Positions 324 through 64,000 of a stretch of DNA of 64,000 nucleotides are shown piece by piece. Made by a program: the position numbers and the translations under genes. Position 1 is the first letter of the stretch; the number at the start of each line of letters is the position of its first letter. Source of the stretch: Hyphomicrobiales bacterium (GTDB lineage: Bacteria; Pseudomonadota; Alphaproteobacteria; Rhizobiales; CBDCVD01). The stretch is from NCBI GenBank assembly GCA_965224015.1, contig OZ245032.1, positions 939,201-1,003,200 of the forward strand. Reading direction: 5' to 3'. The notes beneath the pieces were generated by a model, which saw nothing but the letters and a program-made list of their open reading frames with translations, made no database searches and had not been told where the DNA came from.

Positions 324-378
324 GCTGGCATTCAGATCACAAACGCTGGCATCCAGATCAGCAAATGCCGGCTGCAAC
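324..378. repeat. Tandem repeat, approx 21-bp unit x2.5
   Basis: GCTGGCATTCAGATCACAAAC / GCTGGCATCCAGATCAGCAAAT / GCCGGCTGCAAC, contiguous. Confidence 0.8.
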
Positions 379-412
379 GCCTTCCGATCATCCAAAGCCC
401 ATAACGCTGGTA

Positions 413-1603
413 TTACTCGATAATGGTGGCGACGACGCCGGCACCTACCGTGCGCCCGCCCTCACGAATGGCAAAGCGCAGCTTCTCTTCCATGGCGATC
501 GGCACTATCAGCTCAACCTCCATCTCGCAATTGTCCCCGGGCATCACCATCTCCGTTCCCTCGGAAAGGCTCACAACACCCGTCACATCGGTGGTGCGAA
601 AATAAAACTGCGGACGGTAATTGGTGAAAAACGGCGTGTGACGACCCCCCTCGTCCTTGGTCAGAATATAGGCCTCCGCCTTGAACTTCGTATGCGGCGT
701 CACGGAACCCGGCTTACACAAAACCTGACCACGCTCAATCCCATCCCGCTCAACACCGCGCAGCAAACACCCGACATTGTCCCCAGCCTCGCCTTGATCC
801 AGAAGCTTGCGGAACATCTCAACCCCCGTCACCGTCGTCTTGCCGGTATTGCGTATGCCAACAATCTCAACTTCCTCACCAACGTTCACAATCCCCCGCT
901 CAATGCGCCCCGTGGCCACCGTGCCACGGCCGGAGATCGAAAAAACATCCTCAACAGGCATCAAAAACGGCTGATCTTTCGGGCGCTCAGGCTGCGGGAT
1001 ATATTCATCAACCGCCGCCATCAATTCAACAATCTTCTCTTTGCCAATCGCATCATCACGACCCTCAAGAGCCGCCAAAGCCGAACCGGTCACAATCGGA
1101 ATGTCATCGCCGGGAAAATCATAAGACGACAAAAGCTCGCGCACTTCCAATTCAACAATCTCCAACAACTCCGCATCGTCAACCTGGTCCGACTTGTTCA
1201 AAAATACAACAAGCGCCGGAACACCAACCTGGCGCGCCAACAATATATGCTCCCGGGTCTGGGGCATCGGGCCATCCGCCGCCGAGACCACCAGAATGGC
1301 CCCATCCATCTGCGCTGCACCGGTGATCATGTTCTTGACATAATCCGCATGGCCAGGACAGTCCACATGGGCGTAGTGGCGGTTCTCCGTCTCGTACTCC
1401 ACATGCGCCGTCGAAATGGTAATGCCGCGCTCGCGCTCCTCAGGCGCCTTGTCAATGTCTTCAAACGCCGTCGCCGTCGCCCCGCCAACTTCCGCCAAAA
1501 CCTTCGTAATCGCAGCCGTCAGCGTCGTCTTGCCATGATCAACATGACCTATCGTCCCGATATTCACATGCGGCTTGTTGCGCTCAAACTTTTCCTTCGC
1601 CAT
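413..1603 (-). CDS. tuf: Elongation factor Tu
   Basis: 396-aa ORF with [18 protein letters not shown] and NKSD GTPase motifs, full-length EF-Tu. Confidence 0.98.
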
Positions 1604-1635
1604 TGACCTCGCTCCTTTTGACCTCGCTCCTCTTG
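1604..1635. repeat. Tandem duplication (15-16 bp x2) of the tuf ribosome-binding region
   Basis: On the tuf strand: CAAGAGGAGCGAGGTCA AAAGGAGCGAGGTCA ATG. The AGGAGCGAGGTCA block occurs twice directly upstream of the start codon. Confidence 0.85.
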
Positions 1636-1667
1636 CGAAATGGATCCCCGATCCTGCTCTTCATCAT

Positions 1668-1724
1668 CATTTGTTTACGTCTGAATCATCTGTTTACGTC
1701 TGAATCATTTGTTTACATCTGAAC
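1668..1724. repeat. Tandem repeat, 19-bp unit x3
   Basis: CATTTGTTTACGTCTGAAT / CATCTGTTTACGTCTGAAT / CATTTGTTTACATCTGAAC. Confidence 0.9.
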
Positions 1725-1929
1725 CCGTCGGTGTTCGTCAGTCAGGGCCTTACCCTTAACCCTTACACCCATCGCCCCAGCACCTGAAACCCGAGGTTCC
1801 GTTCACCCGCGCACATCGCCTGCGCACGTCGCCCGCGCCCTCTTGAAATCGGCACCTTACAGCCGGTCCTGGCACCAACACAGCTTTTCTCTCAACACAT
1901 GCCCCTACCTTTTCAATACCAGCATCCCA

Positions 1930-4005
1930 CTATGCAAACTTGGCCTGAATGGCCTCGGCTTCTGCCTGTGGCACCTGCTGATAATGATCAAACTGCATGG
2001 TAAACTGGGCCCGCCCCTGACTCATGGAGCGCAGGTTACTCACATAACCAAACATGTTGGCAAGCGGCACCATCGCATTCACGACTGTGGCAACGCCGCG
2101 CGACTCGGTTCCCTGAATTTGCCCCCGGCGGGAATTCAGATCACCAATAATATCGCCCATATAGTCCTCAGGGGTAACAACCTCAACCTTCATGATGGGC
2201 TCCAGCAACTTGGGTGCAGCCTTGCGCGCCCCTTCCCGAAAGGCCGCCCGCGAGGCGATTTCAAAAGCCAACACGCTCGAATCCACATCGTGATAGGCGC
2301 CATCCAGAAGCGTTACCTTGGTATCCACAAGAGGAAAGCCGGCGATAACCCCTGTTGACAAAACACTGTTGACGCCCTTCTCAACGCCAGGAATATATTC
2401 CTTGGGCACATTGCCGCCGGTAATCTTGCTCTCAAATGCATGCCCCGTTCCCTGCTCATTGGGCTCGATCAAAAGCTTGACACGGGCAAATTGCCCGGCA
2501 CCGCCGGACTGTTTTTTGTGGGTATAATCAATCTCTTCAGCGCGGGTGACGGTTTCCCGGTAGGCGACCTGGGGATTGCCGATATTGGCTTCGACCTTAA
2601 ATTCACGCTTCATCCGGTCGACAATGATATCAAGGTGCAATTCGCCCATGCCGGCGATGATGGTCTGGCCGGTCTCATTATCGGACTTGACGCGAAAACT
2701 CGGATCCTCTTGCGCCAAACGGTGCAGAGCGGAGCCCATTTTTTCCTGATCACCCTTGGTTTTTGGCTCAACGGTGATCTCGATCACAGGGTCAGGAAAC
2801 TCCATGCGCTCAAGAATAACCTGGTGATCCGGCGCGCACAGGGTATCACCGGTCGTCGTTTCCTTCAGCCCGGCAATGGCAACGATGTCTCCCGCGTGCG
2901 CCAGCTTGATATCCTCCCGGTGATTGGAGTGCATTAAAAGCATACGGCCGACGCGTTCACGCCGGCCTTTTACACTATTAACAACTGTGGAACCGCTCTC
3001 CAGGGTGCCGGAATAAATACGCGCAAAGGTGAGCGAACCGACAAACGGGTCATTCATCACCTTAAAGGCCAGCATGGCGAGAGGCACATCGTCACTGGCC
3101 TGGCGGGTGACATCCTCCTCGCTCTTGACGTCAATGCCCTTTACGGCGGGAATATCAACCGGGCTTGGCAAATAATCGACAACCGCATCTAGAAGCGGCT
3201 GTACACCTTTGTTTTTGAAAGCCGTTCCACACAGAACGGGAACAAAAGTATTATTGATTGTTCCCATGCGGATAAGCTGTGCAAGAGCATCCCCGCAGGG
3301 CTCCTCTCCCTCCAGATAGGCTTCCATGGCCCCCTCATGGACCTCAACGGCCGCCTCCACCATGGCCTCACGCGCCCTGGTCGCCGCATCAACCATGTCG
3401 GCAGGAATATCCTGCTCATGAAACGTTGCGCCTAAGCTTTCGTTATCCCAGATGATTGCTTTCATTTTGATGAGATCAATTACGCCGGCAAATTTCGATT
3501 CGGCCCCAATCGGCAACTGAATCACCAGCGGATTGGCACCAAGCCGGGTCCTTATCATCTCAACTGATTTATCAAAGTCAGCGCCCAACTTATCCATTTT
3601 ATTGACAAATATCATGCGTGGCACGTTGTATTTGTCTGCCTGGCGCCAAACTGTTTCCGTTTGCGGCTCAACCCCGGCGTTGGCATCAAGAAGTGCAACA
3701 GCCCCATCAAGCACCCGCAACGAACGCTCCACTTCAATGGTAAAATCCACATGCCCGGGGGTATCGATGATGTTCAGGCGCTTGCCTTTCCAAAAGCAGG
3801 TGGTTGCGGCCGAGGTGATGGTAATACCCCGTTCCTGCTCCTGCTCCATCCAGTCCATGGTGGCGGCGCCATCGTGAACTTCGCCAATCTTGTGGCTTTT
3901 GCCCGTGTAGTAAAGGATCCGCTCGGTCGTGGTGGTCTTGCCGGCATCAATATGGGCCATGATGCCAAAGTTCCGATAATCCTCAATCTTGTACGCTCGC
4001 GCCAT
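1930..4005 (-). CDS. fusA: Elongation factor G
   Basis: [17 protein letters not shown] and NKMD motifs. Start moved from the ORF-track Met (4026) to Met8, giving the canonical [26 protein letters not shown]-terminus. Confidence 0.97.
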
Positions 4006-4077
4006 AACCAATCTCGTTAATACCATCCAAATAAATTCAGGCCGGGAACACCAACTTGCACCCGACCCCTGATAGCC

Positions 4078-4548
4078 CTACCACCGATAATGTGAAAATG
4101 CCCTATTGGCCTCTGCCATTCGATGCGTGTCTTCGCGCTTTTTCACCGCATTGCCGCGCTCGTTAAAGGCATCGAGCAACTCACCTGAAAGGCGCTCAGT
4201 CATGGTGCGCTCGCTGCGCGCACGCGCTGCAGCAATCAGCCAACGAATAGCCAGCGCCTTTTTGCGCTCACTACGAACCTCCACGGGAACCTGATAGGTA
4301 GCGCCACCGACGCGGCGCGAACGCACCTCAATGGACGGACTTACATTGTCAAGCGCGGTGTGAAAAACATCGACCGGGTCCTGCTTCAACTTGTCCTGAA
4401 TAATATCGAAAGCCCCATAGACCATGCGTTCGGCAACAGACTTTTTGCCATGTTTCATGAGGCTGTTCATGAATTTGGAAATCGTCTGATCGCCGTATTT
4501 GGGATCGGGAATTATGTCTCGCTTTTCGGCGCTGTGACGTCTTGACAT
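4078..4548 (-). CDS. rpsG: 30S ribosomal protein S7
   Basis: 156 aa, [20 protein letters not shown]...[10 protein letters not shown], between rpsL and fusA. Confidence 0.97.
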
Positions 4549-4603
4549 GGTTTTGGTTCCGCGATTTGCTTCCGCTCCTGGCGCCGGCAGCGCTTCCGAT
4601 TGA

Positions 4604-4975
4604 CTATTTTGGCCGCTTGGCGCCGTATTTGGATCGGCGCTGGCGTCGATCTTTTACACCGTGCGTATCAAGAACACCGCGTAAAACGTGATAGCGAACC
4701 CCAGGCAGGTCCCGCACCCTACCGCCTCGTATCAGAACAACGGCGTGCTCTTGCAGGTTGTGCCCCTCACCGGGGATGTAACTTATAACCTCACGCCCAT
4801 TGGTCAAGCGAACCTTGGCCACTTTACGAAGGGCAGAGTTTGGCTTTTTGGGTGTCGTGGTATAGACCCGGGTGCAAACCCCTTTCTTTTGCGGGTTTGC
4901 CTCCATGGCCGGCACTTTCGAGCGCTTGACCTTCGATTGCCGCGGCTTGCGGATCAGTTGATTGATCGTTGGCAT
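4604..4975 (-). CDS. rpsL: 30S ribosomal protein S12
   Basis: 123 aa, [12 protein letters not shown]...[11 protein letters not shown]...GVRYH. Confidence 0.97.
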
Positions 4976-4997
4976 CCTAAACTCTTATTCCTCGCAC

Positions 4998-5046
4998 CCT
5001 AACACGTTCCTTGCAGCCTAACACGTTCCTTGCAGCCTAACACGCA
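4998..5046. repeat. Tandem repeat, 19-bp unit x2.6, just upstream of rpsL
   Basis: CCTAACACGTTCCTTGCAG x2, then CCTAACACGCA. Confidence 0.9.
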
Positions 5047-5526
5047 TTTCGCTGCGCCCTTGCCCTGAACCCACCCCCATGCGCTTTAGCAACCCCGGCA
5101 ACTCAAGCCGCCACGCCAACCTTGATAACCGCAAGCCCGACGGCTCGACCGCCACGTCTTTCCCGTAACCCAACACGCAGCATCCGCTTGCACAAATACG
5201 CCGTTTCCAGTTCCCGCGCCAACGGCAGCGCCAAACTGTAATTGAACACCACCTCGCGTTACAACAAACGCTGTAACACCGATCGCGCATCCGCATGTTG
5301 CCTGTATTGTCGTTGGTAGCGTTTAGAGATACGTGGTTTCGTGTGCATTTAACGGGGCGCACGAATGGGCGAACTCTACGGCCTACCCGAGAATCGCCTT
5401 GGGTTCTAGCGCTAAAAGACAGGCATCGTCAAGCAATTTCGCGCTCTCGCCTTAATTTTTTGCCAATTGCGTGCAACTTTAATGGCGTTCGCGGATAATT
5501 GGCGGCAATTGCGGTCTGAATTCTCT

Positions 5527-5580
5527 ATGTCAGTGCAAAATGTCAGTGCAAAATGTCAGTACAAAATGTCAGTGCAAAAT
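5527..5580. repeat. Tandem repeat, 13-bp unit x4
   Basis: ATGTCAGTGCAAA x4 (third unit ATGTCAGTACAAA). Confidence 0.9.
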
Positions 5581-5603
5581 TGCTTGCCTGATCCCGACGG
5601 GTT

Positions 5604-5705
5604 ATACCAGCGGTATTGGCTTTATATACACGCCGACTGGTGTACTGCCTTGATAACACACTTACTTGACGCTAAGCCATGAGTCATTGTTAAGGCCCCT
5701 TGGTA
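5604..5705 (+). repeat. RepA copy
   Basis: ATACCAGCGGTATTGGCTTTATATACACGCCGACTGG...TTGTTAAGGCCCCTTGGTA. Its 3' end is 36 bp from the start codon of the next gene. Confidence 0.9.
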
Positions 5706-5740
5706 GAAATTGATTTCCATATAAATAGGAACTTCGCATT

Positions 5741-8445: not shown

Positions 8446-8592
8446 AGGCCGGGCTCAGGTGTTGTTGATTGAGAATTGATGATCGCGCATCAAGCACGCC
8501 CCTGTCTACCACACGTTGGGCTGGAAAAACTACTGGTATGCTCCGCGGCGTTCGCATATAGCTAAATGACTTTATTCTGATACAGTCATTTA

Positions 8593-8632
8593 GAGCGTAT
8601 CAGGTTTTAATAGAACCATTCTGACGGAGCGA
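8593..8632 (+). repeat. RepB short form (approx 40 bp)
   Basis: GAGCGTATCAGGTTTTAATAGAACCATTCTGACGGAGCGA. Preceded by a 10-bp inverted repeat, CTAAATGACT (8562-8571) / AGTCATTTAG (8584-8593). Confidence 0.8.
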
Positions 8633-8706
8633 TTTTGCGCCAATATGGGCCTTAAGTCTCGCAGGATATAGGGGGGCTATTTGCAAGAGGCTTAAGGTCC
8701 ATATGA

Positions 8707-8938
8707 GATCAGCATGGCGTTAGCTTTACCCATTTTGCCAGGGGCAAAGCTAACGCCATAAAGCTGATCGCCCTCTAAATCTATAGCAAAAGCGTCCCTT
8801 CGGGTTTCCGTTTGGCGCAACGCCCACGCCCAAGCCGCTCTCGAGAGATGGATAAACATCGCTCTTCGATCGCCTTGAGCTTGGGAATCGCCTCGCCAAT
8901 CGAGAAACAGAATTGATTCTATTAAAACCTGACACGCT
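8707..8938 (-). repeat. RepB full-length copy (hairpin module + core + left end)
   Basis: The plus strand shows GATCAGCATGGCGTTAGCTTT...AAAGCTAACGCCATAAAGCTGATC (long hairpin), then CTCTAAATCTATAGCAAAAGCG...CCTGACACGCTC. Over 90% alike by eye to 15674-15906 and 12449-12607. Confidence 0.9.
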
Positions 8939-8971
8939 CTAGCTATATGCTTTTATTATCGCTCGGCTTTT

Positions 8972-10547: not shown

Positions 10548-12085
10548 CCATCGGCACTGCTAACCAGAACCAGTGCCGTGCGCCGCTGCTTGCTGCGCAA
10601 ATCCTTGATCCGCTCGGCCAGATCTTGGGGCGTTTCGATTGTGTTCTGCATCACTTCGACGATCACATCACCAGGCTTGAGCCCCTTGTCCTGGGCATCC
10701 GTGCCTGGCGTCACGGCGCTCACCACAACCCCCCTGATCGCCTCCTCAATCGCATACCGTTTACGCAGGTCAGCAGACAGGGGGCTGACCGTCAGGCCCA
10801 GGACCGTAACAGCAGGATGGTCCTGATTGTTGTCGCCGGAACTCGGATCTTGTGGCACAGGCGCATCCTGCGCATCCTGCGCGTCCTGCGCGTCCTGCGC
10901 ATCCCGCCTCTCCTGCCCCTCCTGCCCCTCCTGCCCCTCCTCCTCAAGGCGTCCCAGGGTCACGGAAATTGTGCGCTTTTTGCCATCGCGCAACACCTCG
11001 ACAGCGACAACCTTGCCCACCGGCGTCAGCGCGACAATGCGCGGCAGCTCGCGCATTTTCTCGATCGATTTTCCATCAAAACTAAGTACCACATCGCCGG
11101 GCTCAAGACCGGATGCGGCCGCGGGGCCGCCCGCCTCCACGTCAGCAATAAGAACGCCGCGTGGGCGCTCAAGACCCAGACTTTCAGCGATATTGCCGGA
11201 GATTTCCTGAATATGAACCCCGAGCCAGCCGCGTCGGGTTTCACCAAATGTTTTAAGCTGCTCAATGACCGGAACCGCGAGAGATGTGGGAATGGCAAAG
11301 CCAAGGCCAATGGAGACCCCGGTTGGAGAAATGATTGCGGTATTGATGCCAACGACTTCTCCGTTCATATTAAACAAAGGACCACCGGAGTTTCCTCGAT
11401 TGATGGCAGCGTCGGTTTGGATGAAATTGTCGTAGGAGCCGACGCGAATATCACGCCCGCGTGCCGAGACAACGCCAACGGTGACAGAGCCCCCAAGAGC
11501 AAATGGATTGCCGATTGCAATCACCCAGTCACCGACCCGGATCGCCTCCGAGTCGCCAAAACGCGCCGGCACCAGCGGCTTGTCCGGTTTAACCTGAAGA
11601 ACCGCAAGGTCGGTTTTTTTGTCGCGACCCAGGATTTCCGCATCCAGTCGCGTTCCATCATTGAGAACAACGGTAATTTCGTCCGCCTCGGCGATGACAT
11701 GACTGTTGGTGACCACAATGCCGCCTGCATCAATGATAAAACCCGAGCCAAGCGCGCTCGCCTGCCCCAGAGGGCCATCACTGTCAGGGGATTGTTTATT
11801 GAAAAAATCGTCAAAAAAATCCTTGAACGGAGACCCGTCCGGCGCCTGTGGGATCGGCAGTCCCCGTCGCCCCTTAAGCTTCTGGCTGGTGGATATGTTC
11901 ACCACCGAGGCTTGTAGATCTTCAACAAGGTCGGCAACGGATTGGGGCCCACGGGCGTTCGCCGAAGGCGGCATTATTGCGAAAACGAGGCCCAACACCA
12001 GTGCAACAAAAAAACCTCTGAACATGATCACTGCCTGTGGCTTGCCTAAATTTAAATAGTGAAAGGTCTTCATATCCTTTCCCAT
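10502..12085 (-). CDS. htrA: Do-family periplasmic serine endopeptidase (DegP/HtrA) with two PDZ domains
   Basis: GNSGGPLFN active-site motif, trypsin-like core and two PDZ regions. The signal-peptide-like MFRGFFVALVLGLVFAI suggests an alternative start at 12025. Confidence 0.93.
   Translation of the reverse strand: MGKDMKTFHYLNLGKPQAVIMFRGFFVALVLGLVFAIMPPSANARGPQSVADLVEDLQASVVNISTSQKLKGRRGLPIPQAPDGSPFKDFFDDFFNKQSPDSDGPLGQASALGSGFIIDAGGIVVTNSHVIAEADEITVVLNDGTRLDAEILGRDKKTDLAVLQVKPDKPLVPARFGDSEAIRVGDWVIAIGNPFALGGSVTVGVVSARGRDIRVGSYDNFIQTDAAINRGNSGGPLFNMNGEVVGINTAIISPTGVSIGLGFAIPTSLAVPVIEQLKTFGETRRGWLGVHIQEISGNIAESLGLERPRGVLIADVEAGGPAAASGLEPGDVVLSFDGKSIEKMRELPRIVALTPVGKVVAVEVLRDGKKRTISVTLGRLEEEGQEGQEGQERRDAQDAQDAQDAQDAPVPQDPSSGDNNQDHPAVTVLGLTVSPLSADLRKRYAIEEAIRGVVVSAVTPGTDAQDKGLKPGDVIVEVMQNTIETPQDLAERIKDLRSKQRRTALVLVSSADGQHRFVALRLDKGSE
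10861..10941. repeat. Two abutting in-frame 9-bp tandem arrays inside htrA (5 + 4 units)
   Basis: GCGCATCCT-type unit x5, then GCCCCTCCT-type unit x4. On the coding strand these encode EEGQEGQEGQERRDAQDAQDAQDAQDA between the PDZ domains. Confidence 0.9.
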
Positions 12086-12162: not shown

Positions 12163-12189
12163 TCTATCCTGTCTATCCTGTCTATCCTG
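12163..12189. repeat. Tandem repeat, 9-bp unit x3
   Basis: TCTATCCTG x3, between the DUF2065 gene and htrA. Confidence 0.9.
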
Positions 12190-12225
12190 TCACTACCGCA
12201 GAGGCGGCAATATCGCGATCCCCGT

Positions 12226-12411: not shown

Positions 12412-12448
12412 CTCATCATCTTGTTCCTGTGCTCTCAGATAGCCGCTA

Positions 12449-12607
12449 GAGTGTGTCAGGTTTTAATAGAACCCATTCTGTTTCTCGATTGGCGAGGCGA
12501 TACCCAAGTTCAAGGCGATCGAAGAGCGATGTTTATCCATCTCTCAAGAGCGCCTTGGGCGTGGGCGTTGCGCCAATCGGAAACCCGAAGGGGCGCTTTT
12601 GCTATAG
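12449..12607 (+). repeat. RepB copy lacking the long-hairpin module
   Basis: GAGTGTGTCAGGTTTTAATAGAACCCATTCTGTTTCTCGATTGGCGAGGCGA...GGGGCGCTTTTGCTATAG. Confidence 0.9.
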
Positions 12608-14617: not shown

Positions 14618-14730
14618 CTGCTCTCCTTAAGTCCTCTGACATTCCTGTCAACAATTCTCAAGCCACTGACGGCGCAACAACGAGACTATCATAACATGAA
14701 TCCTCGTCGCTGAATTGACGCGCACAACCG

Positions 14731-14761
14731 TCGATACCATCGATACCATCGATACCATCGA
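14731..14761. repeat. Tandem repeat, 9-bp unit x3.4
   Basis: TCGATACCA x3, then TCGA. Confidence 0.9.
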
Positions 14762-15444: not shown

Positions 15445-15476
15445 GAGAGGTACTTAACATCATCCCCCGTGCAGAG

Positions 15477-49643: not shown

Positions 49644-49690
49644 TGGAAATTTGAGATCAGAAGCAGGAAACCTGAAACGCGCTCGCTTAA

Positions 49691-49725
49691 ACATGCTTGA
49701 ACATACTTGAACATACTTAAACACG
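49691..49725. repeat. Tandem repeat, 10-bp unit x3.5
   Basis: ACATGCTTGA ACATACTTGA ACATACTTAA ACACG, upstream of mutS. Confidence 0.85.
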
Positions 49726-49799: not shown

Positions 49800-52580
49800 A
49801 TGAAGCATTCCTCGCAAGACTTTTCTACGGCTGAACCGGAAAAAGTGCGTAAGCCGCGCAAAACAAGGCGCAGCGAGCCCGCTGGCGCGACGCCGATGAT
49901 GCAGCAGTATTTTGAGATCAAGGCGGCCAATCCGGACATGCTGCTGTTTTACCGCATGGGTGATTTTTATGAACTGTTTTTTCATGATGCGGAAGAGGCA
50001 TCGCGCGCGCTCGGGATTGCGCTGACCAAGCGGGGACAACATTTGGGCGAGGATATTCCCATGTGCGGCGTGCCGGCGCGTTCGGCGGACGAGTATTTAC
50101 ACAAGCTCATAGCTTTGGGTCATCGGGTTGCGGTCTGCGAGCAGCTTGAGGATCCGCGCGAGGCCAAGGCGCGCGGTGCAAAATCCGTCGTCAAGCGCGA
50201 TGTCGTGCGCCTTATCACGGCGGGAACGCTCACCGAGGAAGCGTTGCTGGAAAAGGGAGAGGCCAATTATCTCGCGGCCTTGACGCGCGCAGGGCGTGCG
50301 CCGGCACAGTATCAATACGGTTTGGCCTGGGTGGATATTTCGACAGGAGAATTTCGTATTGCCAACCCGAAAGCCGACACCGTCGAGTCGGCGGTGGCAC
50401 GGATTGCGCCAAAGGAGATTATCGCTGCGAGGGATTTGATCGAGGACCCGGAGCTTGCGCGCCTATGGAGTGAGGTGGACGCAAGCCTGACCGAACAACC
50501 CGGGTCAATATTCGACTCCACAATTGTGGATCGAAAGGTTTTGGCTTTTTTCAACGTGCAAACAAGTGAGGCATTGGGAAGCTTTTCACCCGTTGAACTG
50601 GCGGCCATGGCGGGCATTATCAGCTATATCGAGCGCACCCAGATAGGTGCCAAACCGGCTCTTAACCGCCCAACGCGCGAGGCGCAATCCAGTGTTTTGG
50701 CCATAGACTCGGCAAGCCGGCGCAATCTTGAGCTCACGCGCACGCTGACTGGCGAGCGCCGCGGCACCCTGGCTCACGCCATTGATCACACCCGAAGCGC
50801 TGCTGGTGGCAGGCTTTTGCTGTCTCATCTTGCCAGCCCTCTTACCGACCCGGATGCCATCAACGCCCGGCTGGATTGTGTGCAATGGCTTGTCGCTCAT
50901 CCCGCTCTGCATGAGGCGGTTCGCGCAAAACTCAAGCAGGTGCCGGATATGAGCCGGGCCCTTGGTCGGCTGTCTGTGGGGCGCGGAGGACCACGGGATC
51001 TTGGCGATATACTCGTGGGAGCAACCGTGGGACGCGCCATTGCGGCGCTGATTATGGATGCAAGTGATCCCTTACCTACCGCGGCCTCGGCGATCAATCG
51101 TGATGTGCAGGCCATTGCGGCACCCTTGTGCGAGACTTTGCGCGCTGCCCTTGCTGAAGACTTGCCGCTGACGCGAAAGGATGCGGGCTTTGTGCGCGCC
51201 GGATATCATCCAGAACTCGACGAAGCGCGCGGACTACGCGATGAAAGCCGTCGCATCATCGCTTCATTGCAGCAAAAATATGCCGCTCAGACACAAATCA
51301 AGTCCTTGAAAGTTCGCCACAACAATGTGCTCGGATACTTTATTGAAGTCACGGCCAATCATGGGGACAAGCTCATGGCGGCGCCGTTTGACGAGACCTT
51401 TATTCATCGTCAGACACTTGCCAATGCGGTGCGCTTTTCGAGCGTTGAACTGGGAGAATTGGCGCAGAAAATCGCCGCTGCCGCGGACGCGGTCGCGATG
51501 CTCGAAGGGCAGGTCTTTGATGCCCTGAGCGAGGCGGTGATGCAACAAGGCGGGCACATAAAAAAAACGGCCCATGCCCTTGCCATCCTGGACGTAATGG
51601 CCAGCCACGCGCATCTGGCGCGAACACAAAATTATTGTCGACCTCGGGTTGACGGCGGCATGGCCTTTGAAATTACCGACGGGCGCCATCCCGTTGTCGA
51701 GCAGGTCCAAAGCAACCAAAACAGCAAACCGTTTGTTGCCAACACCTGTTCCCTTGGTCCTCCCGATTATGGCCAGCACGGGCAAATCTGGTTGGTGACC
51801 GGGCCCAACATGGCGGGCAAGTCAACGTTTTTGCGCCAGAACGCGCTCATTGCCATTCTCGCCCAGATGGGGTCCTATGTCCCCGCAACCAGCGCCCACA
51901 TTGGGGTGGTTGATCAGCTTTTCAGCCGCGTAGGAGCCGCGGATGATCTGGCGCGCGGGCGCTCGACCTTTATGGTCGAAATGATCGAGACCGCGGCCAT
52001 TTTAAACCAGGCCGGGAAGCGGGCATTTGTGATACTGGATGAGATTGGGCGCGGCACCGCAACCTATGACGGGCTTTCCATTGCCTGGGCGACGATCGAA
52101 CATTTGCACCAGGTGAACACCTGCCGGGCGCTGTTTGCGACCCATTATCACGAAATGACAGCCTTGTCGCAAAAGCTCGACCGGCTGAAAAATGTCACCG
52201 TCAGTGTGCGCGAGTGGAAAGGGGAAGTGGTATTTTTACACGCCATTGTCCCCGGTGCGGCAGATCGCTCCTATGGCATTCAGGTGGCTCGCCTGGCCGG
52301 ATTGCCCGCGGCCGTGATAACGCGCGCAAGCGCGGTTCTCGCCCAACTTGAAAACAAGGAGCGTGACCACTCCAGCACCCCGCTCATTGATGATCTGCCC
52401 CTGTTCTCAATTACGTCGCAACCCCAATCGCAACCCCAGTCGCAACTGGCCGATACCCATCCCGTTCTCAAGATGCTTGAAAAAACCAATCCCGATGACC
52501 TCACCCCGCGTGATGCGCTGGAAATTCTCTATGCAATGAAAAAGCAGTATGGGATTGATCGAGATCAGGAGACACCGTGA
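49800..52580 (+). CDS. mutS: DNA mismatch repair protein MutS
   Basis: 926 aa, TPMMQQYFEIKAANPDMLLFYRMGDFYELFF, GPNMAGKSTFLRQ Walker A, DEIGRGT. Confidence 0.96.
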   Translation: MKHSSQDFSTAEPEKVRKPRKTRRSEPAGATPMMQQYFEIKAANPDMLLFYRMGDFYELFFHDAEEASRALGIALTKRGQHLGEDIPMCGVPARSADEYLHKLIALGHRVAVCEQLEDPREAKARGAKSVVKRDVVRLITAGTLTEEALLEKGEANYLAALTRAGRAPAQYQYGLAWVDISTGEFRIANPKADTVESAVARIAPKEIIAARDLIEDPELARLWSEVDASLTEQPGSIFDSTIVDRKVLAFFNVQTSEALGSFSPVELAAMAGIISYIERTQIGAKPALNRPTREAQSSVLAIDSASRRNLELTRTLTGERRGTLAHAIDHTRSAAGGRLLLSHLASPLTDPDAINARLDCVQWLVAHPALHEAVRAKLKQVPDMSRALGRLSVGRGGPRDLGDILVGATVGRAIAALIMDASDPLPTAASAINRDVQAIAAPLCETLRAALAEDLPLTRKDAGFVRAGYHPELDEARGLRDESRRIIASLQQKYAAQTQIKSLKVRHNNVLGYFIEVTANHGDKLMAAPFDETFIHRQTLANAVRFSSVELGELAQKIAAAADAVAMLEGQVFDALSEAVMQQGGHIKKTAHALAILDVMASHAHLARTQNYCRPRVDGGMAFEITDGRHPVVEQVQSNQNSKPFVANTCSLGPPDYGQHGQIWLVTGPNMAGKSTFLRQNALIAILAQMGSYVPATSAHIGVVDQLFSRVGAADDLARGRSTFMVEMIETAAILNQAGKRAFVILDEIGRGTATYDGLSIAWATIEHLHQVNTCRALFATHYHEMTALSQKLDRLKNVTVSVREWKGEVVFLHAIVPGAADRSYGIQVARLAGLPAAVITRASAVLAQLENKERDHSSTPLIDDLPLFSITSQPQSQPQSQLADTHPVLKMLEKTNPDDLTPRDALEILYAMKKQYGIDRDQETP
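52416..52449. repeat. In-frame 12-bp tandem repeat x2.8 near the mutS C-terminus
   Basis: TCGCAACCCCAA TCGCAACCCCAG TCGCAACTGG encodes SQPQSQPQSQL. Confidence 0.88.
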
Positions 52581-55486: not shown

Positions 55487-56479
55487 CTAATCTTCGTTTC
55501 CGGCCGTGGTGCCCCGGTGCGCCCTCTCAGGGCGCACCGTGGACGGGTCCTCGGTCTGCGCGGCACGGCTAACATCGGGACCGACAGCGTCTTCAGAACC
55601 ATCAAAATCGTCAGAGGGGTCAGGATTGCCGGTTTTAAGGGTATCGGAGCCCGGTCGGTGAATGTGCTGGGGTGCGGATTGATCCCCCGCGGGGCCGGAG
55701 TCCCGCTCAACCGCTTCGGCAGAGACATCTGCGTGCGTTTTCAATTCCACAGGTTCATTGGTGTCCTGAGGCTTTTGCTCATGAACCTCTGCGGTGGGCC
55801 CTTGTGCCTCTCTTGCGGTATCTGGCACGGTGTCCCGCACGCCCCCTTTTGCAATCCCTACCATGGCCGGGCGCAGCACGCGGTCCTTTATGCGGAAGCC
55901 GCCCTGAATAACCTGCACAACCGTTCCGTGTACAGCGTTTTCGTCAGGAATTTCAAACATGGCCTCGTGAAAGTTGGGATCAAATTTCTCCCCCAAGGCA
56001 TCAATGGGGGCAATGCCATGTTTTTCCAATCCCTTACGCAAGGCGTTCTGGGTCAATTGTACGCCTTCAAGCAAAGACTTGAATTCCTCGCTATGGGCGC
56101 CGGCATCCGTATGGGAGACGGATTCCACGGCGCGCATCAGGTTGTCATTGACCTCCAGCATATCGCGCGCGAACCTGGCGATGGCGAATTGACCCGCATC
56201 TTTCACACTTTTTTCCGACCGTCGGCGCAGATTTTCCATCTCCGCCAACAAACGCAGGGCCTTGTCCTTTAACTCTGCGTTCTCCTCGCGCAATTCGGCA
56301 ACAACGTCTTGTCCCCGTTCTCCCGCCATATCGCCGTCGGCCTGCTTATCGGTCGCGCTCGGCTGAGCCGCAGCGCGCGCCGCGTCCGTTTCCATGGCAT
56401 TATCCTCAACCCATTCGGGTTTGGGCTTCTTACGCAGGGATTTTCGCGGTTTGCGCTGCTGATTACGGTTGCTCATCAT
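55487..56479 (-). CDS. grpE: Nucleotide exchange factor GrpE with extended low-complexity termini
   Basis: The core LKDKALRLLAEMENLRRRSEK...FDPNFHEAMFE...VLRPAMVGIAKG is typical GrpE. It is flanked by a basic N-terminal segment and an acidic Pro/Asp-rich C-terminal tail of about 110 aa. Confidence 0.9.
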   Translation of the reverse strand: MMSNRNQQRKPRKSLRKKPKPEWVEDNAMETDAARAAAQPSATDKQADGDMAGERGQDVVAELREENAELKDKALRLLAEMENLRRRSEKSVKDAGQFAIARFARDMLEVNDNLMRAVESVSHTDAGAHSEEFKSLLEGVQLTQNALRKGLEKHGIAPIDALGEKFDPNFHEAMFEIPDENAVHGTVVQVIQGGFRIKDRVLRPAMVGIAKGGVRDTVPDTAREAQGPTAEVHEQKPQDTNEPVELKTHADVSAEAVERDSGPAGDQSAPQHIHRPGSDTLKTGNPDPSDDFDGSEDAVGPDVSRAAQTEDPSTVRPERAHRGTTAGNED

Positions 56480-56684: not shown

Positions 56685-56744
56685 AAACTGTGACTCTATA
56701 TCTCAACGTGTGACTCTATATCACAAACTGTAACTCTATATAGA
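56685..56744. repeat. Tandem repeat, 20-bp unit x3
   Basis: AAACTGTGACTCTATATCTC / AACGTGTGACTCTATATCAC / AAACTGTAACTCTATATAGA, about 200 bp upstream of grpE. Confidence 0.9.
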
Positions 56745-56826
56745 GTAAAGCCGTTAATGGGCAATGCACAGCGCCCGATTTAGGGTAAAAAACCCGGAAC
56801 CTGCGATGTTGGCTTTTTCCGGCATA

Positions 56827-56929
56827 ATACCAGCGGTATTGGCTTTATAGACACGCCGACTGGTGTACGGCTTTGATAACATGCCTCTTTGACGCTAAGC
56901 CATGAGTCATTGTTAAGGACCCTTGGTAT
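56827..56929 (+). repeat. RepA copy
   Basis: ATACCAGCGGTATTGGCTTTATAGACACGCCGACTGG...TTGTTAAGGACCCTTGGTAT. Confidence 0.9.
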
Positions 56930-56993
56930 AAATACCGGCCCCCTGTTGCAAGCACGGCCTCACTTATCGACCAAAGCGCATCCCGTCACATTT

Positions 56994-57656: not shown

Positions 57657-57701
57657 ATCAAGACACATTCTATCAAGACACGTTCTATCAAGACACGTTC
57701 T
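57657..57701. repeat. Tandem repeat, 15-bp unit x3, abutting the lon stop codon
   Basis: ATCAAGACACATTCT / ATCAAGACACGTTCT / ATCAAGACACGTTCT. Confidence 0.9.
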
Positions 57702-60138
57702 AATGCGGCACCATCTTTGAAGATTGATCACGATCACCAGAAACACCGGCGACGGGCTGCGACATCTCTTTTTCGTTCCATTCAATGGGTTCAGGGCGCG
57801 TCACAAGGGCGCGCTTGAGTACTTCGTCCATATGGCCGACAGGAATGATCTCCAAACCCTCCTTGAGGGTGTCGGGTATCTCTGCCAAATCCTTGGCATT
57901 TTCAAGGGGAATGAGCACCGTCTTGATCCCGCCGCGCAGGGCTGCGAGAAGCTTCTCTTTCAAGCCACCAATAGGCAGCACCCGCCCCCTCAGGGTGATC
58001 TCTCCTGTCATGGCCACCGTCCGGTCAACGGCAATGCCGGTCATCATGGACACAATCGCCGTCACCATGGCAACACCAGCGGAAGGGCCATCTTTTGGGG
58101 TCGCGCCCTCGGGTACGTGAACGTGAATGTCACGATGTTCAAACGCTGGTGGCGCGATGCCAAAGGCCACCGAACGCGAGCGCACATAGGCGGCTGCGGC
58201 AGAAATGGACTCTTTCATCACATCACGCAGGTTCCCCGTCACCGTCATCTTGCCCTTGCCCGGCATCATGACGCCCTCAATAGTGAGCAGTTCGCCTCCG
58301 GTTTCCGCCCACGCCAATCCGGTAACCACGCCCACCTGATCCTCGCCTTCAACCTCGCCAAAGCGGAATTTCGGGACCCCAAGAAACTCATCAAGGCTGT
58401 CCTCGGTAACCGCAATGGATTTTTGCTTCGACGTCACAAGCACTTTGACAGCCTTGCGGGTCAGGGATTCGATTTCGCGCTTTAAGTTGCGCACCCCCGC
58501 CTCGCGGGTATAGCGGCGAATGACGCTCAACAGAGCCTCGCGATCGATGGACCATTCCTTCTCATCAAGGCCATGGGCCTTCATGGCGTCGGGAATGAGA
58601 TGGCGCAGGGCGATTTCGACTTTTTCGTCCTCGGTATACCCGGCAATGCGGATAATCTCCATACGGTCCATCAGCGCCGGCGGGATGTTCAGTGTATTGG
58701 CTGTGGTGATAAACATGACGTTGGACAGATCGTAATCAATCTCCAGATAGTGATCGTTGAACGTATTATTTTGCTCGGGATCAAGAACCTCAAGCAAAGC
58801 CGAAGACGGATCGCCACGAAAATCCATGCCCATTTTGTCGATCTCATCGAGCAAAAAGAGAGGATTGGATTTCTTGGCCTTTTTCATCGACTGGATGACC
58901 TTACCGGGAAGCGAGCCGATATAGGTGCGCCGGTGGCCACGGATTTCGGCTTCATCACGCACGCCGCCAAGGGACATGCGCACAAAGGCGCGCCCGGTAG
59001 CCCGAGCAATCGAACGCCCCAAGGAGGTCTTGCCCACGCCCGGGGGACCGACCAGACAAATAATCGGGCCCTTTAACTTGGACATTCGGCTCTGCACCGC
59101 CAAATACTCGATAATGCGCTCCTTGACCTTCTCCAGTCCGTAGTGATCCTCGTCCAGAACTTTTTGGGAAAATGTCAGGTCCTTTTTGACCTTGGATTTT
59201 TTGTTCCAGGGGATGCCCAACAGCCAATCGAGGTAGTTGCGCACAACCGTTGCCTCTGCGGACATGGGGCTCATCTGGCGCAGCTTCTTCATCTCCGCCT
59301 GGGCCTTCTCGCGCGCCTCCTTGGAAAGCTTGGTTTTGGTGATTTTTTCATCCAGTTCGGACAACTCGTCCGTACCTTCCTCACCATCCCCCAGCTCTTT
59401 CTGAATGGCCTTCATCTGCTCATTCAGATAGTACTCGCGCTGGGTTTTTTCCATCTGCCGCTTGACCCGCGAACGAATGCGTTTTTCGACTTGCAATACA
59501 CTGATCTCGCTCTCCATCAGTGCCAGAACTTTCTCAAGCCGCTCGGCAACGTTGACAATATTGAGAACGTCCTGCTTGTCGGCAATTTTCACCGCCAGAT
59601 GCGAAGCAATGGTATCGGCCAGTTTGGAATAGTCGTCGATCTGCGAGGCGGCACCCAGAATTTCGGGAGAAATTTTCTTGTTCAACTTGACGTAATTCTC
59701 AAACTCGGCAACCGCAGAGCGGGCCAGGGCCTTGATCTCAACAGGGCTCGCCAGATCATCGGCAAGAAGCGTGGCCTCGGCCTCATACATGATGTCATTG
59801 TCGTTGAAGCGCTCGATCCGGGCGCGATGCAATCCCTCAACCAGAACCTTGACCGTCCCGTCAGGCAGTTTCAGCAGCTGCAGAACGCTCGCCAGCGTGC
59901 CAATGCGATAGATGGCCTTGGTGTCCGGCTCATCGTCGCCGGCATGCTCCTGGGTGGCCAGAAGGATCAACTTGTCGCTGCGCATGACTTCTTCGAGCGC
60001 CTGAATAGACTTCTCGCGGCCAACAAAAAGGGGCACAAACATATGCGGAAAAACCACAATATCGCGAAGTGGTAAAACCGGATACACGTCATGCTGCGAC
60101 GGTGCCGCAGCAGGTTTTTTGGGCTCTTTGGTCATCAT
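57700..60138 (-). CDS. lon: ATP-dependent Lon protease
   Basis: 812 aa, GPPGVGKTS Walker A, and DGPSAGVAMVTAIVS with the catalytic Ser. Confidence 0.97.
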   Translation of the reverse strand: MMTKEPKKPAAAPSQHDVYPVLPLRDIVVFPHMFVPLFVGREKSIQALEEVMRSDKLILLATQEHAGDDEPDTKAIYRIGTLASVLQLLKLPDGTVKVLVEGLHRARIERFNDNDIMYEAEATLLADDLASPVEIKALARSAVAEFENYVKLNKKISPEILGAASQIDDYSKLADTIASHLAVKIADKQDVLNIVNVAERLEKVLALMESEISVLQVEKRIRSRVKRQMEKTQREYYLNEQMKAIQKELGDGEEGTDELSELDEKITKTKLSKEAREKAQAEMKKLRQMSPMSAEATVVRNYLDWLLGIPWNKKSKVKKDLTFSQKVLDEDHYGLEKVKERIIEYLAVQSRMSKLKGPIICLVGPPGVGKTSLGRSIARATGRAFVRMSLGGVRDEAEIRGHRRTYIGSLPGKVIQSMKKAKKSNPLFLLDEIDKMGMDFRGDPSSALLEVLDPEQNNTFNDHYLEIDYDLSNVMFITTANTLNIPPALMDRMEIIRIAGYTEDEKVEIALRHLIPDAMKAHGLDEKEWSIDREALLSVIRRYTREAGVRNLKREIESLTRKAVKVLVTSKQKSIAVTEDSLDEFLGVPKFRFGEVEGEDQVGVVTGLAWAETGGELLTIEGVMMPGKGKMTVTGNLRDVMKESISAAAAYVRSRSVAFGIAPPAFEHRDIHVHVPEGATPKDGPSAGVAMVTAIVSMMTGIAVDRTVAMTGEITLRGRVLPIGGLKEKLLAALRGGIKTVLIPLENAKDLAEIPDTLKEGLEIIPVGHMDEVLKRALVTRPEPIEWNEKEMSQPVAGVSGDRDQSSKMVPH

Positions 60139-60387: not shown

Positions 60388-60427
60388 TCGCGCGGGAAAC
60401 ATGATCAAAGCGCGCCAAAAGCAAAAG

Positions 60428-60465
60428 CGCTCCGTCAGAATGGTTCCATAAAACATGACACGTTC
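60428..60465 (-). repeat. RepB short form (reverse)
   Basis: The reverse complement is GAACGTGTCATGTTTTATGGAACCATTCTGACGGAGCG. Confidence 0.75.
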
Positions 60466-60561
60466 TAAATAGGAGCGCAGGTGTGGCGTTTCAAGCGCTT
60501 GCAAAATGCGCCGCCCGGACAGCAGGGGCACCCCGACCCAATATCGAAACCTGAATTCCTG

Positions 60562-61944: not shown

Positions 61945-61978
61945 GTTTCCCACTTTCCTGCGTTTCCCACTTTCCTGC
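61945..61978. repeat. Tandem repeat, 17-bp unit x2
   Basis: GTTTCCCACTTTCCTGC x2, in the clpP-clpX spacer. Confidence 0.9.
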
Positions 61979-62295
61979 CTCTGACTGGTTCTCACGCCGC
62001 TTCTCCAAACCGCCCGGTCCGATCGTATTCCACCATGAAACACCGACAACGAAATACAGAACACACAATATGGTATCAGCTTAGTCAATGTCGTCCATAG
62101 CGCAAGGACTGATAGGTAATCGGACCCGATAACCTGAAAGTATAATTACCAAAAGCGGTAAACATTATATACCGGAAGTCCTTGCCGTATTTTGCCATAT
62201 TCAAACACCAGCATTGTCTTCAAACATGCACGAAACATACCGCAACGCATCGGTTGCTTTCGGATGTAAGCCCAAAGACGCCATATTATGCCCAT

Positions 62296-62940
62296 TTAAG
62301 CCGCTTCATCATCATCTTCAGGCGCGCGTTTGTCGACAACATTGTCGATCAGGCCAAAGTCCTTGGCCGCATCCGCGGTCATGAAGTTGTCGCGCTCCAG
62401 CGCCTGCAAAACATCATCATAAGCCTGTCCGGTGTGACGAACGTAAATTTCATTGAGACGTTTTTTAACGTTGGAAATCTCTTTGGCGTGAATTTCAATA
62501 TCCGTGGCCTGCCCCTGAAAGCCCGCTGAGGGCTGATGCACCATGATGCGTGCATTGGGTAGTGCTGAGCGCATGCCCTTTTCCCCACCCGCCAACAGGA
62601 GCGAACCCATGGATGCCGCTTGCCCCACACAAAGGGTCGCAATGGCCGGGCGCACAAACTGCATCGTGTCATAAACCGACAACCCTGACGTTACAACGCC
62701 ACCTGGGGAGTTAATGTACATGAAGATCTCTTTTTTGGGATTTTCCGATTCCAGATACAGCAATTGCGCCACGACAAGTGAGGCCATAGCATCTTCCACA
62801 GGGCCGGTGATAAATATGATACGTTCCTTAAGAAGGCGGGAATAGATATCAAAAGCCCGCTCGCCCCGATTGGTTTGCTCAACAACCATCGGGACCAGGG
62901 TGTTCATGTATATCTCTTGGGTCCGTGCGGAATCAGGCAT
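62296..62940 (-). CDS. clpP: ATP-dependent Clp protease proteolytic subunit
   Basis: [29 protein letters not shown] and [11 protein letters not shown] (catalytic Ser). The first Met at 62940 follows TGAGGAT. Met12 (62907) is an alternative. Confidence 0.96.
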
Positions 62941-63458
62941 GGATATATCCTCAATTGGAAAAAATAATAAGCGCCGGGGTTCCCATACGCGCCCGGCACA
63001 AGGTGTGCATCTCCATTAACCGGCATCACAGGCGACTTTAGCAGAAATGCGGCGTCATCTTCCGGCAAGCCGCCCTATCGAAAAAAGCCGATCTCTCATC
63101 ATCAAATGGTGCCAAATCCGAAGTGAACGGCTCCAACTGCTACCATTGGCGTGTGAATGGTTAATGATCTGTTGATTTGTGCGTCCAAGTGGGGACAAAT
63201 GTCGCCGATTGCAACAATTGAACCCGATTTATTTGTGCCGCTTGTCCGTACCATGTCGCCGATTATACGCCGGCATTTACTCAAGTTTTAGCACACAGGT
63301 TTGTTATTTGTTACACCCTGCGCTGTATCGTCACCGCTACGCCAGGGCAAATGTGTCAGATTTTTCAAGGCCCTGAACCGACAAGTTAAGCATGCGGTTG
63401 CTCGCATACTGTTTTTCGCATGCGCGCAAGGTAATTTATCACCCAGGCCACCACCCTT

Positions 63459-63508
63459 GAGCGTGCCATGTCTGAATAGAAGACCCCATTCTGTTTCTCG
63501 TTTGGCGC
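63459..63508 (+). repeat. RepB 5' fragment (degenerate)
   Basis: GAGCGTGCCATGTCTGAATAGAAGACCCCATTCTGTTTCTCGTTTGGCG, compare GAGTGTGTCAGGTTTTAATAGAACCCATTCTGTTTCTCGATTGGCG. Confidence 0.6.
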
Positions 63509-63536
63509 GCACGAAAGACCGTTTCCATTACTTTTA

Positions 63537-63639
63537 ATACCAAGGGTCCTTAACAATGACTCATGGCTTAGCGTCAAAGAGGTATGTTATCAAGGCAGTA
63601 CACCAGTCGGCGTGTATATAAAGCCAATACCGCTGGTAT
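63537..63639 (-). repeat. RepA copy (reverse orientation)
   Basis: ATACCAAGGGTCCTTAACAATGACTCATGGCTTAGCGTCAAAG...AAGCCAATACCGCTGGTAT. Confidence 0.9.
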
Positions 63640-64000
63640 AATTCCTCATGATATCAATGCCGATAAACGCCGATGTAATTGATGTCATTGCCGTCATTGC
63701 CGTCATTGCCGTCGTTGCTGTCGTTGCTGTCGTTGCTGTCGTTAATGTCATTCGTTCGATCGAGTCCATATGAGTAGAACCGTAAATAGGCAAGTGAAAG
63801 CCACACCAGGGTCCGCTGCCGGCGATGACGTTCATGACTTCAACGGCCGCTCTGGGCAGCAATCTTTCTCTCATGATCCGTTTGAAAGCCAGCTTGGCGT
63901 GCAGGCGATCGCTCGCGCAGAAACGCGCGCGCGCCGCGCCATTGTCGAAAGCCTCAATTTGGGACTGGTGATGTTCGACGTGCATGATCGGGCCGTAATC
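63590..64000 (-). CDS. Hypothetical protein, 3' part (reading frame stays open to the right edge)
   Basis: The frame stays open from 64000. I do not recognise the unique part ...DYGPIMHVEHHQSQIEAFDNGAARARFCASDRLHAKLAFKRIMRERLL.... The last ~45 codons are read through the 9-bp array and RepA, so the C-terminus is suspect. Confidence 0.3.
   Translation of the reverse strand, partial: DYGPIMHVEHHQSQIEAFDNGAARARFCASDRLHAKLAFKRIMRERLLPRAAVEVMNVIAGSGPWCGFHLPIYGSTHMDSIERMTLTTATTATTATTAMTAMTAMTSITSAFIGIDIMRNYTSGIGFIYTPTGVLP
63684..63746. repeat. Tandem repeat, 9-bp unit x7 (two sub-types)
   Basis: GTCATTGCC x3, GTCGTTGCT x3, GTCGTTAAT. Confidence 0.9.

Follow-up and report, generated by a model that had tools for sequence, protein, structure and literature searches.

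Tandem arrays among housekeeping genes

The stretch of DNA described here, 64 kb long and called the window below, belongs to the 3.5-Mb genome of an uncultured marine alphaproteobacterium (Hyphomicrobiales, contig OZ245032.1) and contains an unusually large number of short tandem arrays lying among housekeeping genes. These genes are tuf-fusA-rpsG-rpsL, hflK-hflC-degP, lutABC, pgi, tgt-queA, pyrBC, pntAB, trpS, murJ, maeB, mutS-glnD, grpE and hupB-lon-clpX-clpP. Our curated gene map assigns 52.6 kb to coding DNA and leaves 17.9% of the window (11.4 kb) non-coding; it includes four small genes, DUF2065-like, CcoS-like, NadR-like and hupB, that were named from their translations without a family search. 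Arrays were detected by running Tandem Repeats Finder (TRF) on the whole window, with overlapping rows merged into loci, and by an independent scan for exact tandem copies, and 30 dinucleotide-preserving shuffles of the window provided the chance baseline. TRF places an array at each of the 21 starts listed in the initial annotation of this DNA and adds three loci that had been overlooked (1806-1838, 38791-38997 and 42921-42965); the exact-repeat scan recovers the same loci, and clean head-to-tail copies can be read in the letters themselves. The unit sizes of 6-21 bp given in that annotation stand, whereas its copy numbers of 2-7 widen to 2.0-8.8 once imperfect copies are counted.

The window was compared with its sister genome, the only close relative found (a near-complete single-contig metagenome assembly of 3.39 Mb, sampled at three loci, L081, L162 and L166, totalling 66 kb), and with a comparison set of 161 loci from MutS and HflK scans plus the str-operon loci of three relatives (L163-L165), ~2.5 Mb in all and mostly alphaproteobacterial, with the normalised rates taken from the 129 scan loci that are 5 kb or longer (2.3 Mb). 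Merged TRF loci in the window number 44 at a score of at least 30, 23 at a score of at least 50 and 11 at a score of at least 80, against shuffle means of 9.4, 0.2 and 0. At the middle threshold the window has 3.6 loci per 10 kb and a group of 80 mutS-centred loci has 0.59, and arrays of at least 30 bp with at least 80% matches occur at 328/Mb in the window, 89/Mb in the full comparison set and 112/Mb in the sister. Per kb of non-coding DNA, short-unit arrays reach 1.49 in the window, 0.080 in the comparison set and 0.30 in the sister, with 17 arrays in 11.4 kb of spacer in the window and 4 in 13.5 kb in the sister (Poisson p = 3e-16 for the window vs the comparison set, 0.025 for the sister vs the set and 0.001 for the window vs the sister). 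The initial annotation had called the density unusual unless related alphaproteobacteria should match it, and they fall far below it.

The same annotation described the arrays as mostly intergenic, which is also what we find, since 18 of the 23 loci with a score of at least 50 fall in the non-coding 17.9% of the window (binomial p = 5e-10). Inside genes the density is ordinary, at 0.058 per kb in the window and 0.065 in the comparison set on the same crude open reading frame (ORF) map, and the curated map gives 5 arrays in 52.6 kb (0.095 per kb). The excess is therefore ~19-fold and purely non-coding. It is common to the sister, but weakly (~4-fold). Thirteen of the 29 spacers of at least 100 bp carry an array, and 22 of them carry either a tandem or a dispersed repeat; among the 17 short non-coding arrays, 14 precede a gene or occupy the promoter spacer of a divergent gene pair, and the other three are in 3′ tails.

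The sister, a different species, is related to the window at 89% identity in Lon, 91% in EF-G and ~80% in coding DNA, and the next relatives are ~83% identical in EF-G. Database proteins that are 100% identical to the window's own Lon (811 of 812 residues) and EF-G (691 of 698) were found, the entries beginning at a later start codon. Among named organisms the closest are the marine Hyphomicrobiales Coralliovum pocilloporae, Cohaesibacter, Pseudovibrio and Rhodobium, and an association of the organism with a host is only suggested by these relatives, which include the coral-derived Coralliovum. A scan of JGI metagenomes with HflK gave no match above 63% identity, none of the matches listed from a scan of GTDB species with MutS exceeded 59%, and exact-protein look-ups with HflK, RpsL, Lon and EF-G found no conspecific strain in the searchable collections. 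An Rfam scan of the window returned two tRNAs only.

Arrays in spacers and in genes

Arrays in gene leaders, which the initial annotation had reported, are present, and one of them duplicates the Shine-Dalgarno sequence of tuf. This 15-bp array of 2.2 copies (1603-1635, minus strand) abuts the tuf start codon and contains the Shine-Dalgarno region AGGAGCGAGGTCAA twice, where the sister has a single copy; identical ribosome-binding segments thus stand in tandem right before the ATG of a gene that is among the most highly expressed. TRF also reports a 21-bp array of 3.0 copies (308-372, 77% matches) that follows the tuf stop codon at a distance of 40 bp, and, in the fusA-tuf spacer, a 19-bp array of 3.1 copies (1666-1723) and the newly found 13-bp array of 2.5 copies (1806-1838). 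A 19-bp array of 3.0 copies (4988-5044, minus strand) lies 12 bp upstream of the rpsL start, and the divergent spacer between rpsL and a YHS gene holds a 13-bp array of 4.2 copies (5527-5580) with a dispersed element of family A, described below, ~20 bp away. The str operon (window 1-5740) is itself remodelled, in that rpsL has lost rpoB-rpoC as its upstream neighbours in the window and the sister alike, and in the sister a DUF1131 gene stands between tuf and rpsJ.

Beyond the str operon, a perfect 9-bp array of 3.2 copies (12163-12191) occupies the spacer between the DUF2065-like gene and degP, and two arrays precede hflK, one of 9 bp and 3.9 copies at 109 bp (14727-14761) and one a perfect 19-bp duplication of 2.1 copies at 203 bp (14821-14860). 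An 18/19-bp duplication of 2.0 copies with a T-run (28023-28059) lies between pgsA and a gene for a metallo-beta-lactamase-fold protein. The divergent spacer of 172 bp between murJ and the NadR-like gene contains a 9-bp array of 6.7 copies (46252-46311), made of five ACCTGTATA units followed by two ATCTGTATA units, 20 bp upstream of the murJ ATG. A 20-bp array of 2.5 copies (49571-49622) sits just upstream of the maeB ribosome-binding site, within a motif of dispersed family C, and a 10-bp array of 3.8 copies (49686-49723) is found 76 bp upstream of the mutS ORF. A 20-bp array of 2.8 copies with 83% matches (56685-56741) lies 205 bp upstream of grpE, whose 330-residue product (55487-56479, minus strand) has its Pfam GrpE domain at residues 55-211 and a C-terminal extension of ~115 residues that is acidic, proline-rich and apparently disordered and is not a tandem repeat.

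At the 3′ end of lon, a 15-bp array of 3.1 copies (57657-57702, minus strand) has a unit that begins with the lon stop codon, so that three successive in-frame TAG codons follow one another at 15-bp intervals. This array is absent from the sister, as is a perfect 17-bp duplication of 2.0 copies 117 bp upstream of clpX (61945-61978). The last of the arrays, of 9 bp and 8.8 copies (63674-63752), comprises two variant blocks, GTCATTGCC then GTCGTTGCT, beside a family-A element. Its coding status is ambiguous, as it lies inside an ORF without coding signal; this ORF (63590-64000, minus strand, open at the window end) terminates inside the family-A element, its codon usage is not coding-like, and it may be a decayed gene. 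Synteny between the window and the sister stops upstream of clpP. One further locus, the 102-bp array of 2 copies at 38791-38997 (plus strand), is a tandem dimer of the family-A element and not a short-unit array.

All six arrays inside genes are in frame, with units of 9, 9, 9, 6/18, 18 and 12 bp, and they sit in linkers or at the termini of proteins. In DegP a 9-bp array of 8.4 copies (10861-10945, minus strand) encodes (GQE)3 and (DAQ)4-5 in the linker between both PDZ domains; in QueA a 6-bp array of 4.5 copies, also scored as an 18-bp unit (34821-34858, minus strand), encodes GQEQEQEQEQ; and in MutS a 12-bp array of 2.6 copies (52416-52446, plus strand) encodes SQPQSQPQSQ in the linker before the C-terminal domain. 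In these three proteins the lengthening of linkers that the initial annotation had foreseen is thus seen. The remaining coding arrays are a newly found 18-bp array of 2.0 copies with 88% matches inside pntA (42921-42965, minus strand), a 9-bp array of 2.4 copies (15633-15654, plus strand) that gives (DGR)2 in the C-terminal tail of a small CcoS/FixS-like ORF (15477-15674), and a 9-bp array of 3.6 copies (46420-46451, plus strand) that gives (IRR)3 at the N-terminus of a NadR-like P-loop kinase. The CcoS/FixS-like label is a reading of the translation, its computed support being a codon-usage score only, and the name of the NadR-like kinase and its start (TTG at 46404, in frame with RIAIVGPESSGKT) were likewise read from the translation without a family search.

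Two of these proteins deserve further comment. A search with the window DegP did not return that protein among its matches, whereas the window's own Lon and EF-G were returned in theirs, and the sister DegP is only 62% identical vs 89-91% for Lon and EF-G; either DegP evolves much faster than Lon and EF-G, or the degP genes of window and sister lack strict orthology even though the order hflK-hflC-DUF2065-degP is kept. The initial annotation had asked whether mutS/mutL or recombination genes are atypical. MutS is full length and has both the GDFYELFF motif (FYE, mismatch binding) and the GPNMAGKST motif (Walker A), so that an obvious mismatch-repair defect is not indicated. No other repair or recombination gene was found in the window, and loops of 9-21 nt are in any case not a known substrate of MutS-dependent repair.

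The preference for 9-bp units stands as an observation, with seven loci of unrelated units, and its attribution to a mechanistic bias is weak. Units of 9 bp are the most frequent class in the exact-repeat scan, with 7 of its 17 loci (corrected p = 0.0014). Of these seven, three are coding, in the DegP linker, the CcoS-like C-terminus and the NadR-like N-terminus, and a fourth, at 63674, is ambiguous; the argument for a bias is weakened because a multiple of three is forced in the coding cases. Within the non-coding arrays the surplus of 9-bp units falls short of significance (4 of 17, corrected p = 0.4), units of 19-20 bp accounting for 5 of the 17. Set against the comparison set, in which none of 32 non-coding arrays has a 9-bp unit, the difference is nominally significant (Fisher p = 0.011), though the arrays of that set are of another kind, mostly of two copies with units of at least 15 bp. 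The highest copy numbers (6.7, 8.4 and 8.8) do belong to 9-bp arrays, and a mechanistic bias toward this length is possible. Neither a DnaA-box-like nor any other shared motif was seen by eye in the 9-bp units. We also considered that the 9-bp units were seeded by target-site duplications of local mobile elements, for which no flanking duplications were found, and that units near 9-10 and 19-21 bp reflect a helical-repeat periodicity, which is broken by units of 13, 15 and 17 bp.

Local origin of the arrays and enlargement of the spacers

The arrays are independent local products and not copies of a single propagated element, as had been proposed. Their units are unrelated, the longest word common to any two being 8 bases with rotation and either strand allowed, which is the same as for shuffled units, and units of at least 12 bp have no dispersed copies beyond chance; an origin of the arrays as copies of one element is rejected on these grounds. 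They are also recent. TRF finds 85-100% matches, and mainly 92-100%, between the copies of most of the 23 loci with a score of at least 50, although the spacers around them can mostly no longer be aligned with those of the sister (clpP-clpX, the lon tail, upstream of rpsL, upstream of hflK and DUF2065-degP). At the orthologous sites in the sister, namely the tuf leader, rpsL, hflK, DUF2065-degP, the lon tail and clpP-clpX, no window array is conserved.

The arrays are the derived state at three loci. The tuf leader, the only one of the spacer alignments with the sister to give a clean ancestral state, reads AAGAGGAGCGAGGTCAAAAGGAGCGAGGTCAATG in the window vs AAGAGGAGCGATTTATG in the sister, with one Shine-Dalgarno segment in the sister and two, 15 bp apart, in the window. 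Seven other copies of the family-C motif contain the 20-bp segment of 49571 only once, flanked by TAGA microhomology 20 bp apart, and neither the sister DegP nor four other homologues have the DegP linker repeats. Growth of arrays has left its own trace, in that variant units are grouped in blocks at 46252 (five then two), at 63674 (two blocks) and in DegP at 10861 (two or three blocks), which is the pattern of stepwise local duplication. The DUF2065-degP spacer contains CAGGATAGA in 3.2 copies in the window and a different, 16-bp array, AGGTTGTCCCTGGTAA, in 2.1 copies in the sister, so the duplication process is active in both lineages through independent events.

The same spacers also hold three dispersed families, A, B and C, which resemble miniature inverted-repeat transposable elements (MITEs). 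Family A is a ~105-bp intergenic element, present about once per 6 kb in copies that are 82-95% identical, with inverted termini (ATACCAGCGG ... CCTTGGTAT). At least 10 sites (11 units) were recognised in the window, at 127-237, 5590-5710, 15339-15452, 19866-20002 (minus strand), 20483-20594, 26061-26175, 38788-39000 (the tandem dimer), 39262-39353 (diverged), 56821-56935 and 63529-63648 (minus strand). In the sister it occurs at L081:9030-9517, L081:4002-4105, L166:1650-1856 and L166:4966-5164, and it forms tandem arrays there of 99 bp in 4.9 copies, 104 bp in 2 copies and 99 bp in 2 copies. Family A has no Rfam match, its consensus fold is weak and without convincing covariation as a structured RNA, and it looks MITE-like or similar to repetitive extragenic palindromic sequences.

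Families B and C comprise a ~350-bp unit with 28-nt inverted repeats, partial copies of ~150-240 bp and solo terminal motifs, and with their nested palindromes they have a mosaic look. The larger copies are at 8591-8941 (28-nt inverted termini TAGAGCGTATCAGGTTTTAATAGAACCA), 12445-12607, 15671-15911 and 23763-23901, and solo motifs are at 29198-29252, 49599-49635, 60421-60470, 63456-63507 and possibly 28078-28126. Beside copies of family A and of families B and C no target-site duplication was seen, whether of 9 bp or of another length. The three families and the 102-bp array thus show the same sequence at many sites, as dispersed elements do, and the short arrays do not. Enlargement of the spacers is well illustrated between fusA and tuf, which are 326 bp apart in the window and 294 bp apart in the sister vs 71 bp in a Tara metagenome-assembled genome and 49 bp in Coralliovum.

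Explanations of the excess and comparison with known repeats

Our results suggest that the arrays are probably locally generated products of slippage or tandem duplication which, after filtering by selection, accumulate in expanded and weakly constrained spacers. Their behaviour is that of traces left by a mutational process, and nothing marks them as functional elements. An array would be born at replication, when the newly made strand pairs wrongly at a short microhomology (a few bases) 9-21 bp away, with the result that the segment is copied twice. The new long direct repeat would then slip easily, so that units are gained or lost, and units of 9 bp could in this way reach 4-9 copies in variant blocks; copy number would accordingly be expected to differ within populations. 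Selection removes nearly all events in genes, leaving those that are in frame in tolerant linkers or termini, and lets events in spacers persist. Of this account, the local origin and youth of the arrays, their derived state at three loci, the filter of selection and the independent events in both lineages are shown, and slippage as the molecular step is inferred. In this lineage births appear to outpace loss, as the enlarged spacers and their colonisation by three MITE-like families indicate, and this may come from a raised birth rate, from weak purging or from both.

Several observations are at odds with this explanation or limit its reach. The only repair gene in the window, mutS, looks normal, and plain slippage does not explain the 9-bp excess across all arrays. 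Microhomology at a birth junction is documented at one locus only. Several two-copy arrays, such as those at 61945 and 28023, lack a partial extra copy, so that fill-in or end-joining fits them as well as slippage does. The genome-wide rate is extrapolated from 64 kb of a 3.5-Mb genome, and the comparison loci were gene-mapped only crudely. A more specific proposal, which at present seems doubtful, is that this lineage is a natural "tandem-duplication mutator" in which a lineage-specific change in replication or repair raises the birth of 9-21-bp duplications genome-wide, more strongly in the window genome than in the sister. The change may lie in the loss of a single-strand exonuclease such as RecJ, ExoVII or ExoX, in an alteration of the replicase, the clamp or UvrD, or in active end-joining or fill-in, and the 9-bp surplus may then be a footprint of the mechanism beyond that of reading-frame selection.

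The arrays could instead be regulatory devices, either operator-like or iteron-like binding arrays or promoter and leader spacers whose tuning would shift expression heritably and reversibly in the manner of contingency loci, and the upstream position of 14 of the 17 short non-coding arrays is in keeping with such a role, as are the duplicated Shine-Dalgarno sequence of tuf and the array at 46252, in which a TATAAC hexamer recurs at 9-bp intervals at a distance of 20 bp from the murJ ATG. However, a scan of the murJ spacer for a sigma-70 promoter and a terminator found nothing, no sigma-70-like site included, and the unit differs at each array, so no common binding factor is possible; the single motif conserved in relatives that marks iterons and regulator-binding arrays is not seen. 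Three arrays are in 3′ tails, one of them starting at the lon stop codon, none is conserved at the orthologous site of the sister, and the neighbours are housekeeping genes (tuf, rpsL, hflK, murJ, maeB, mutS, lon, clpX) and not the surface or restriction-modification genes that phase variation usually concerns. The arrays differ as well from phase-variable tracts, since no array with a TRF score of at least 50 has a unit below 6 bp and the coding arrays keep the frame, and from clustered regularly interspaced short palindromic repeats (CRISPR), their copies being contiguous without spacers between them. A regulatory function of the arrays is thus improbable.

The proposal that the arrays are by-products of mobile elements, as parts of MITE-like units or as expanded target-site footprints of insertion and excision, has the attraction that footprints of constant length would account for a preference for 9-bp units. 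It accounts for two loci, the 102-bp family-A dimer and the 49571 array in the family-C motif, and the arrays at 308, 5527, 56685 and 63674 are within ~100 bp of an element in spacers where the 10 or more family-A sites (11 units) and the copies of families B and C are found. Such co-location is nevertheless expected, because both types of repeat are confined to spacers, and only 2 of 18 non-coding arrays overlap an element. Unit lengths spanning 9-21 bp allow no single fixed footprint length, and with array units that have no dispersed copies and elements that lack flanking duplications we regard this origin as very improbable, although arrays could still be excision footprints of unseen elements. 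Since the source is a single 3.5-Mb contig known from metagenome assembly only, errors of long-read assembly or consensus polishing also come to mind. These should strike coding DNA (82% of the window) in proportion and without regard to frame, yet 18 of 23 loci are non-coding and every coding array keeps the frame; the long ORFs of the window are all intact, variant units are ordered in blocks within arrays, and the sister, the only other near-complete single-contig metagenome assembly of the lineage on record (3.39 Mb), has five-fold fewer arrays. We give an artefact hardly any credence.

By structure the arrays are of the variable-number tandem repeat (VNTR) or minisatellite-like kind, for which variability between strains, predicted here, is the defining property. 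Their copies are contiguous and head-to-tail, their units are locus-specific and made in place, and only units that are multiples of three occur in genes. The contingency loci of Haemophilus, Neisseria, Campylobacter and Mycoplasma, by comparison, have units of 1-7 bp in many copies, are maintained by selection, and switch surface or restriction-modification genes through frameshifts or promoter spacing. The window arrays are like them in being repeat tracts that probably arose by slipped-strand events, some of them in promoters or at the 5′ ends of genes, and unlike them in their 9-21-bp units, their housekeeping neighbours, the lack of frame shifts and the lack of conservation in the sister. 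Mrazek, Guo and Shah are said to have found in 2007 that, among host-adapted bacteria, repeats with 5-11-bp units are over-represented in the non-coding DNA of certain lineages, and reportedly attributed such long simple sequence repeats to lineage-specific replication and repair together with relaxed selection. More than half of the window arrays differ from these in having units longer than 11 bp.

The closest likeness is to the VNTRs of Burkholderia pseudomallei and to the loci used for multiple-locus VNTR analysis in Yersinia pestis and Brucella, which are also locus-specific, head-to-tail and mostly intergenic, with non-triplet units excluded from genes. For arrays of at least 30 bp with at least 80% matches, U'Ren et al. 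(2007, PMC1853098) give 70-102/Mb in B. pseudomallei K96243, 37/Mb in Y. pestis and 13/Mb in B. anthracis, and the B. pseudomallei genome, in which units of 6-9 bp dominate and ~70% of arrays are intergenic, is regarded as unusually rich in tandem repeats (PMC1853098). By the same TRF criterion the density of the window (328/Mb) is 3-5 times higher. Its units are mostly longer (13-21 bp) and in 2-4 copies, and none of its arrays recurs elsewhere, whereas 36% of the B. pseudomallei arrays do so in that genome (PMC1853098). A report on uncultured marine Beggiatoaceae describes abundant intergenic TAACTGA direct repeats, one heptamer genome-wide, which implies a shared recognition function (PMC4679880); the window resembles this uncultured marine bacterium in the very many sets of short direct repeats in its intergenic DNA and differs from it in that every array has its own unit. 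A survey across the tree of life found bacteria in general not to be enriched for short tandem repeats, with few exceptions (PMC12699852).

On present evidence the window is thus an extreme case of a known phenomenon and not a new kind of element, and it is the density that is unusual. If the window is representative, the 3.5-Mb genome would contain about a thousand young tandem arrays, at a density several times that of B. pseudomallei, the textbook genome rich in tandem repeats. It would then be a natural system in which to study the factors that govern how fast short tandem duplications arise and disappear in bacteria, and a ready source of high-resolution markers by which strains of this uncultured marine lineage could be followed. 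The arrays also provide examples of the remodelling of an essential-gene leader, in the duplicated ribosome-binding site of tuf, and of the lengthening of protein linkers in DegP, MutS and QueA.

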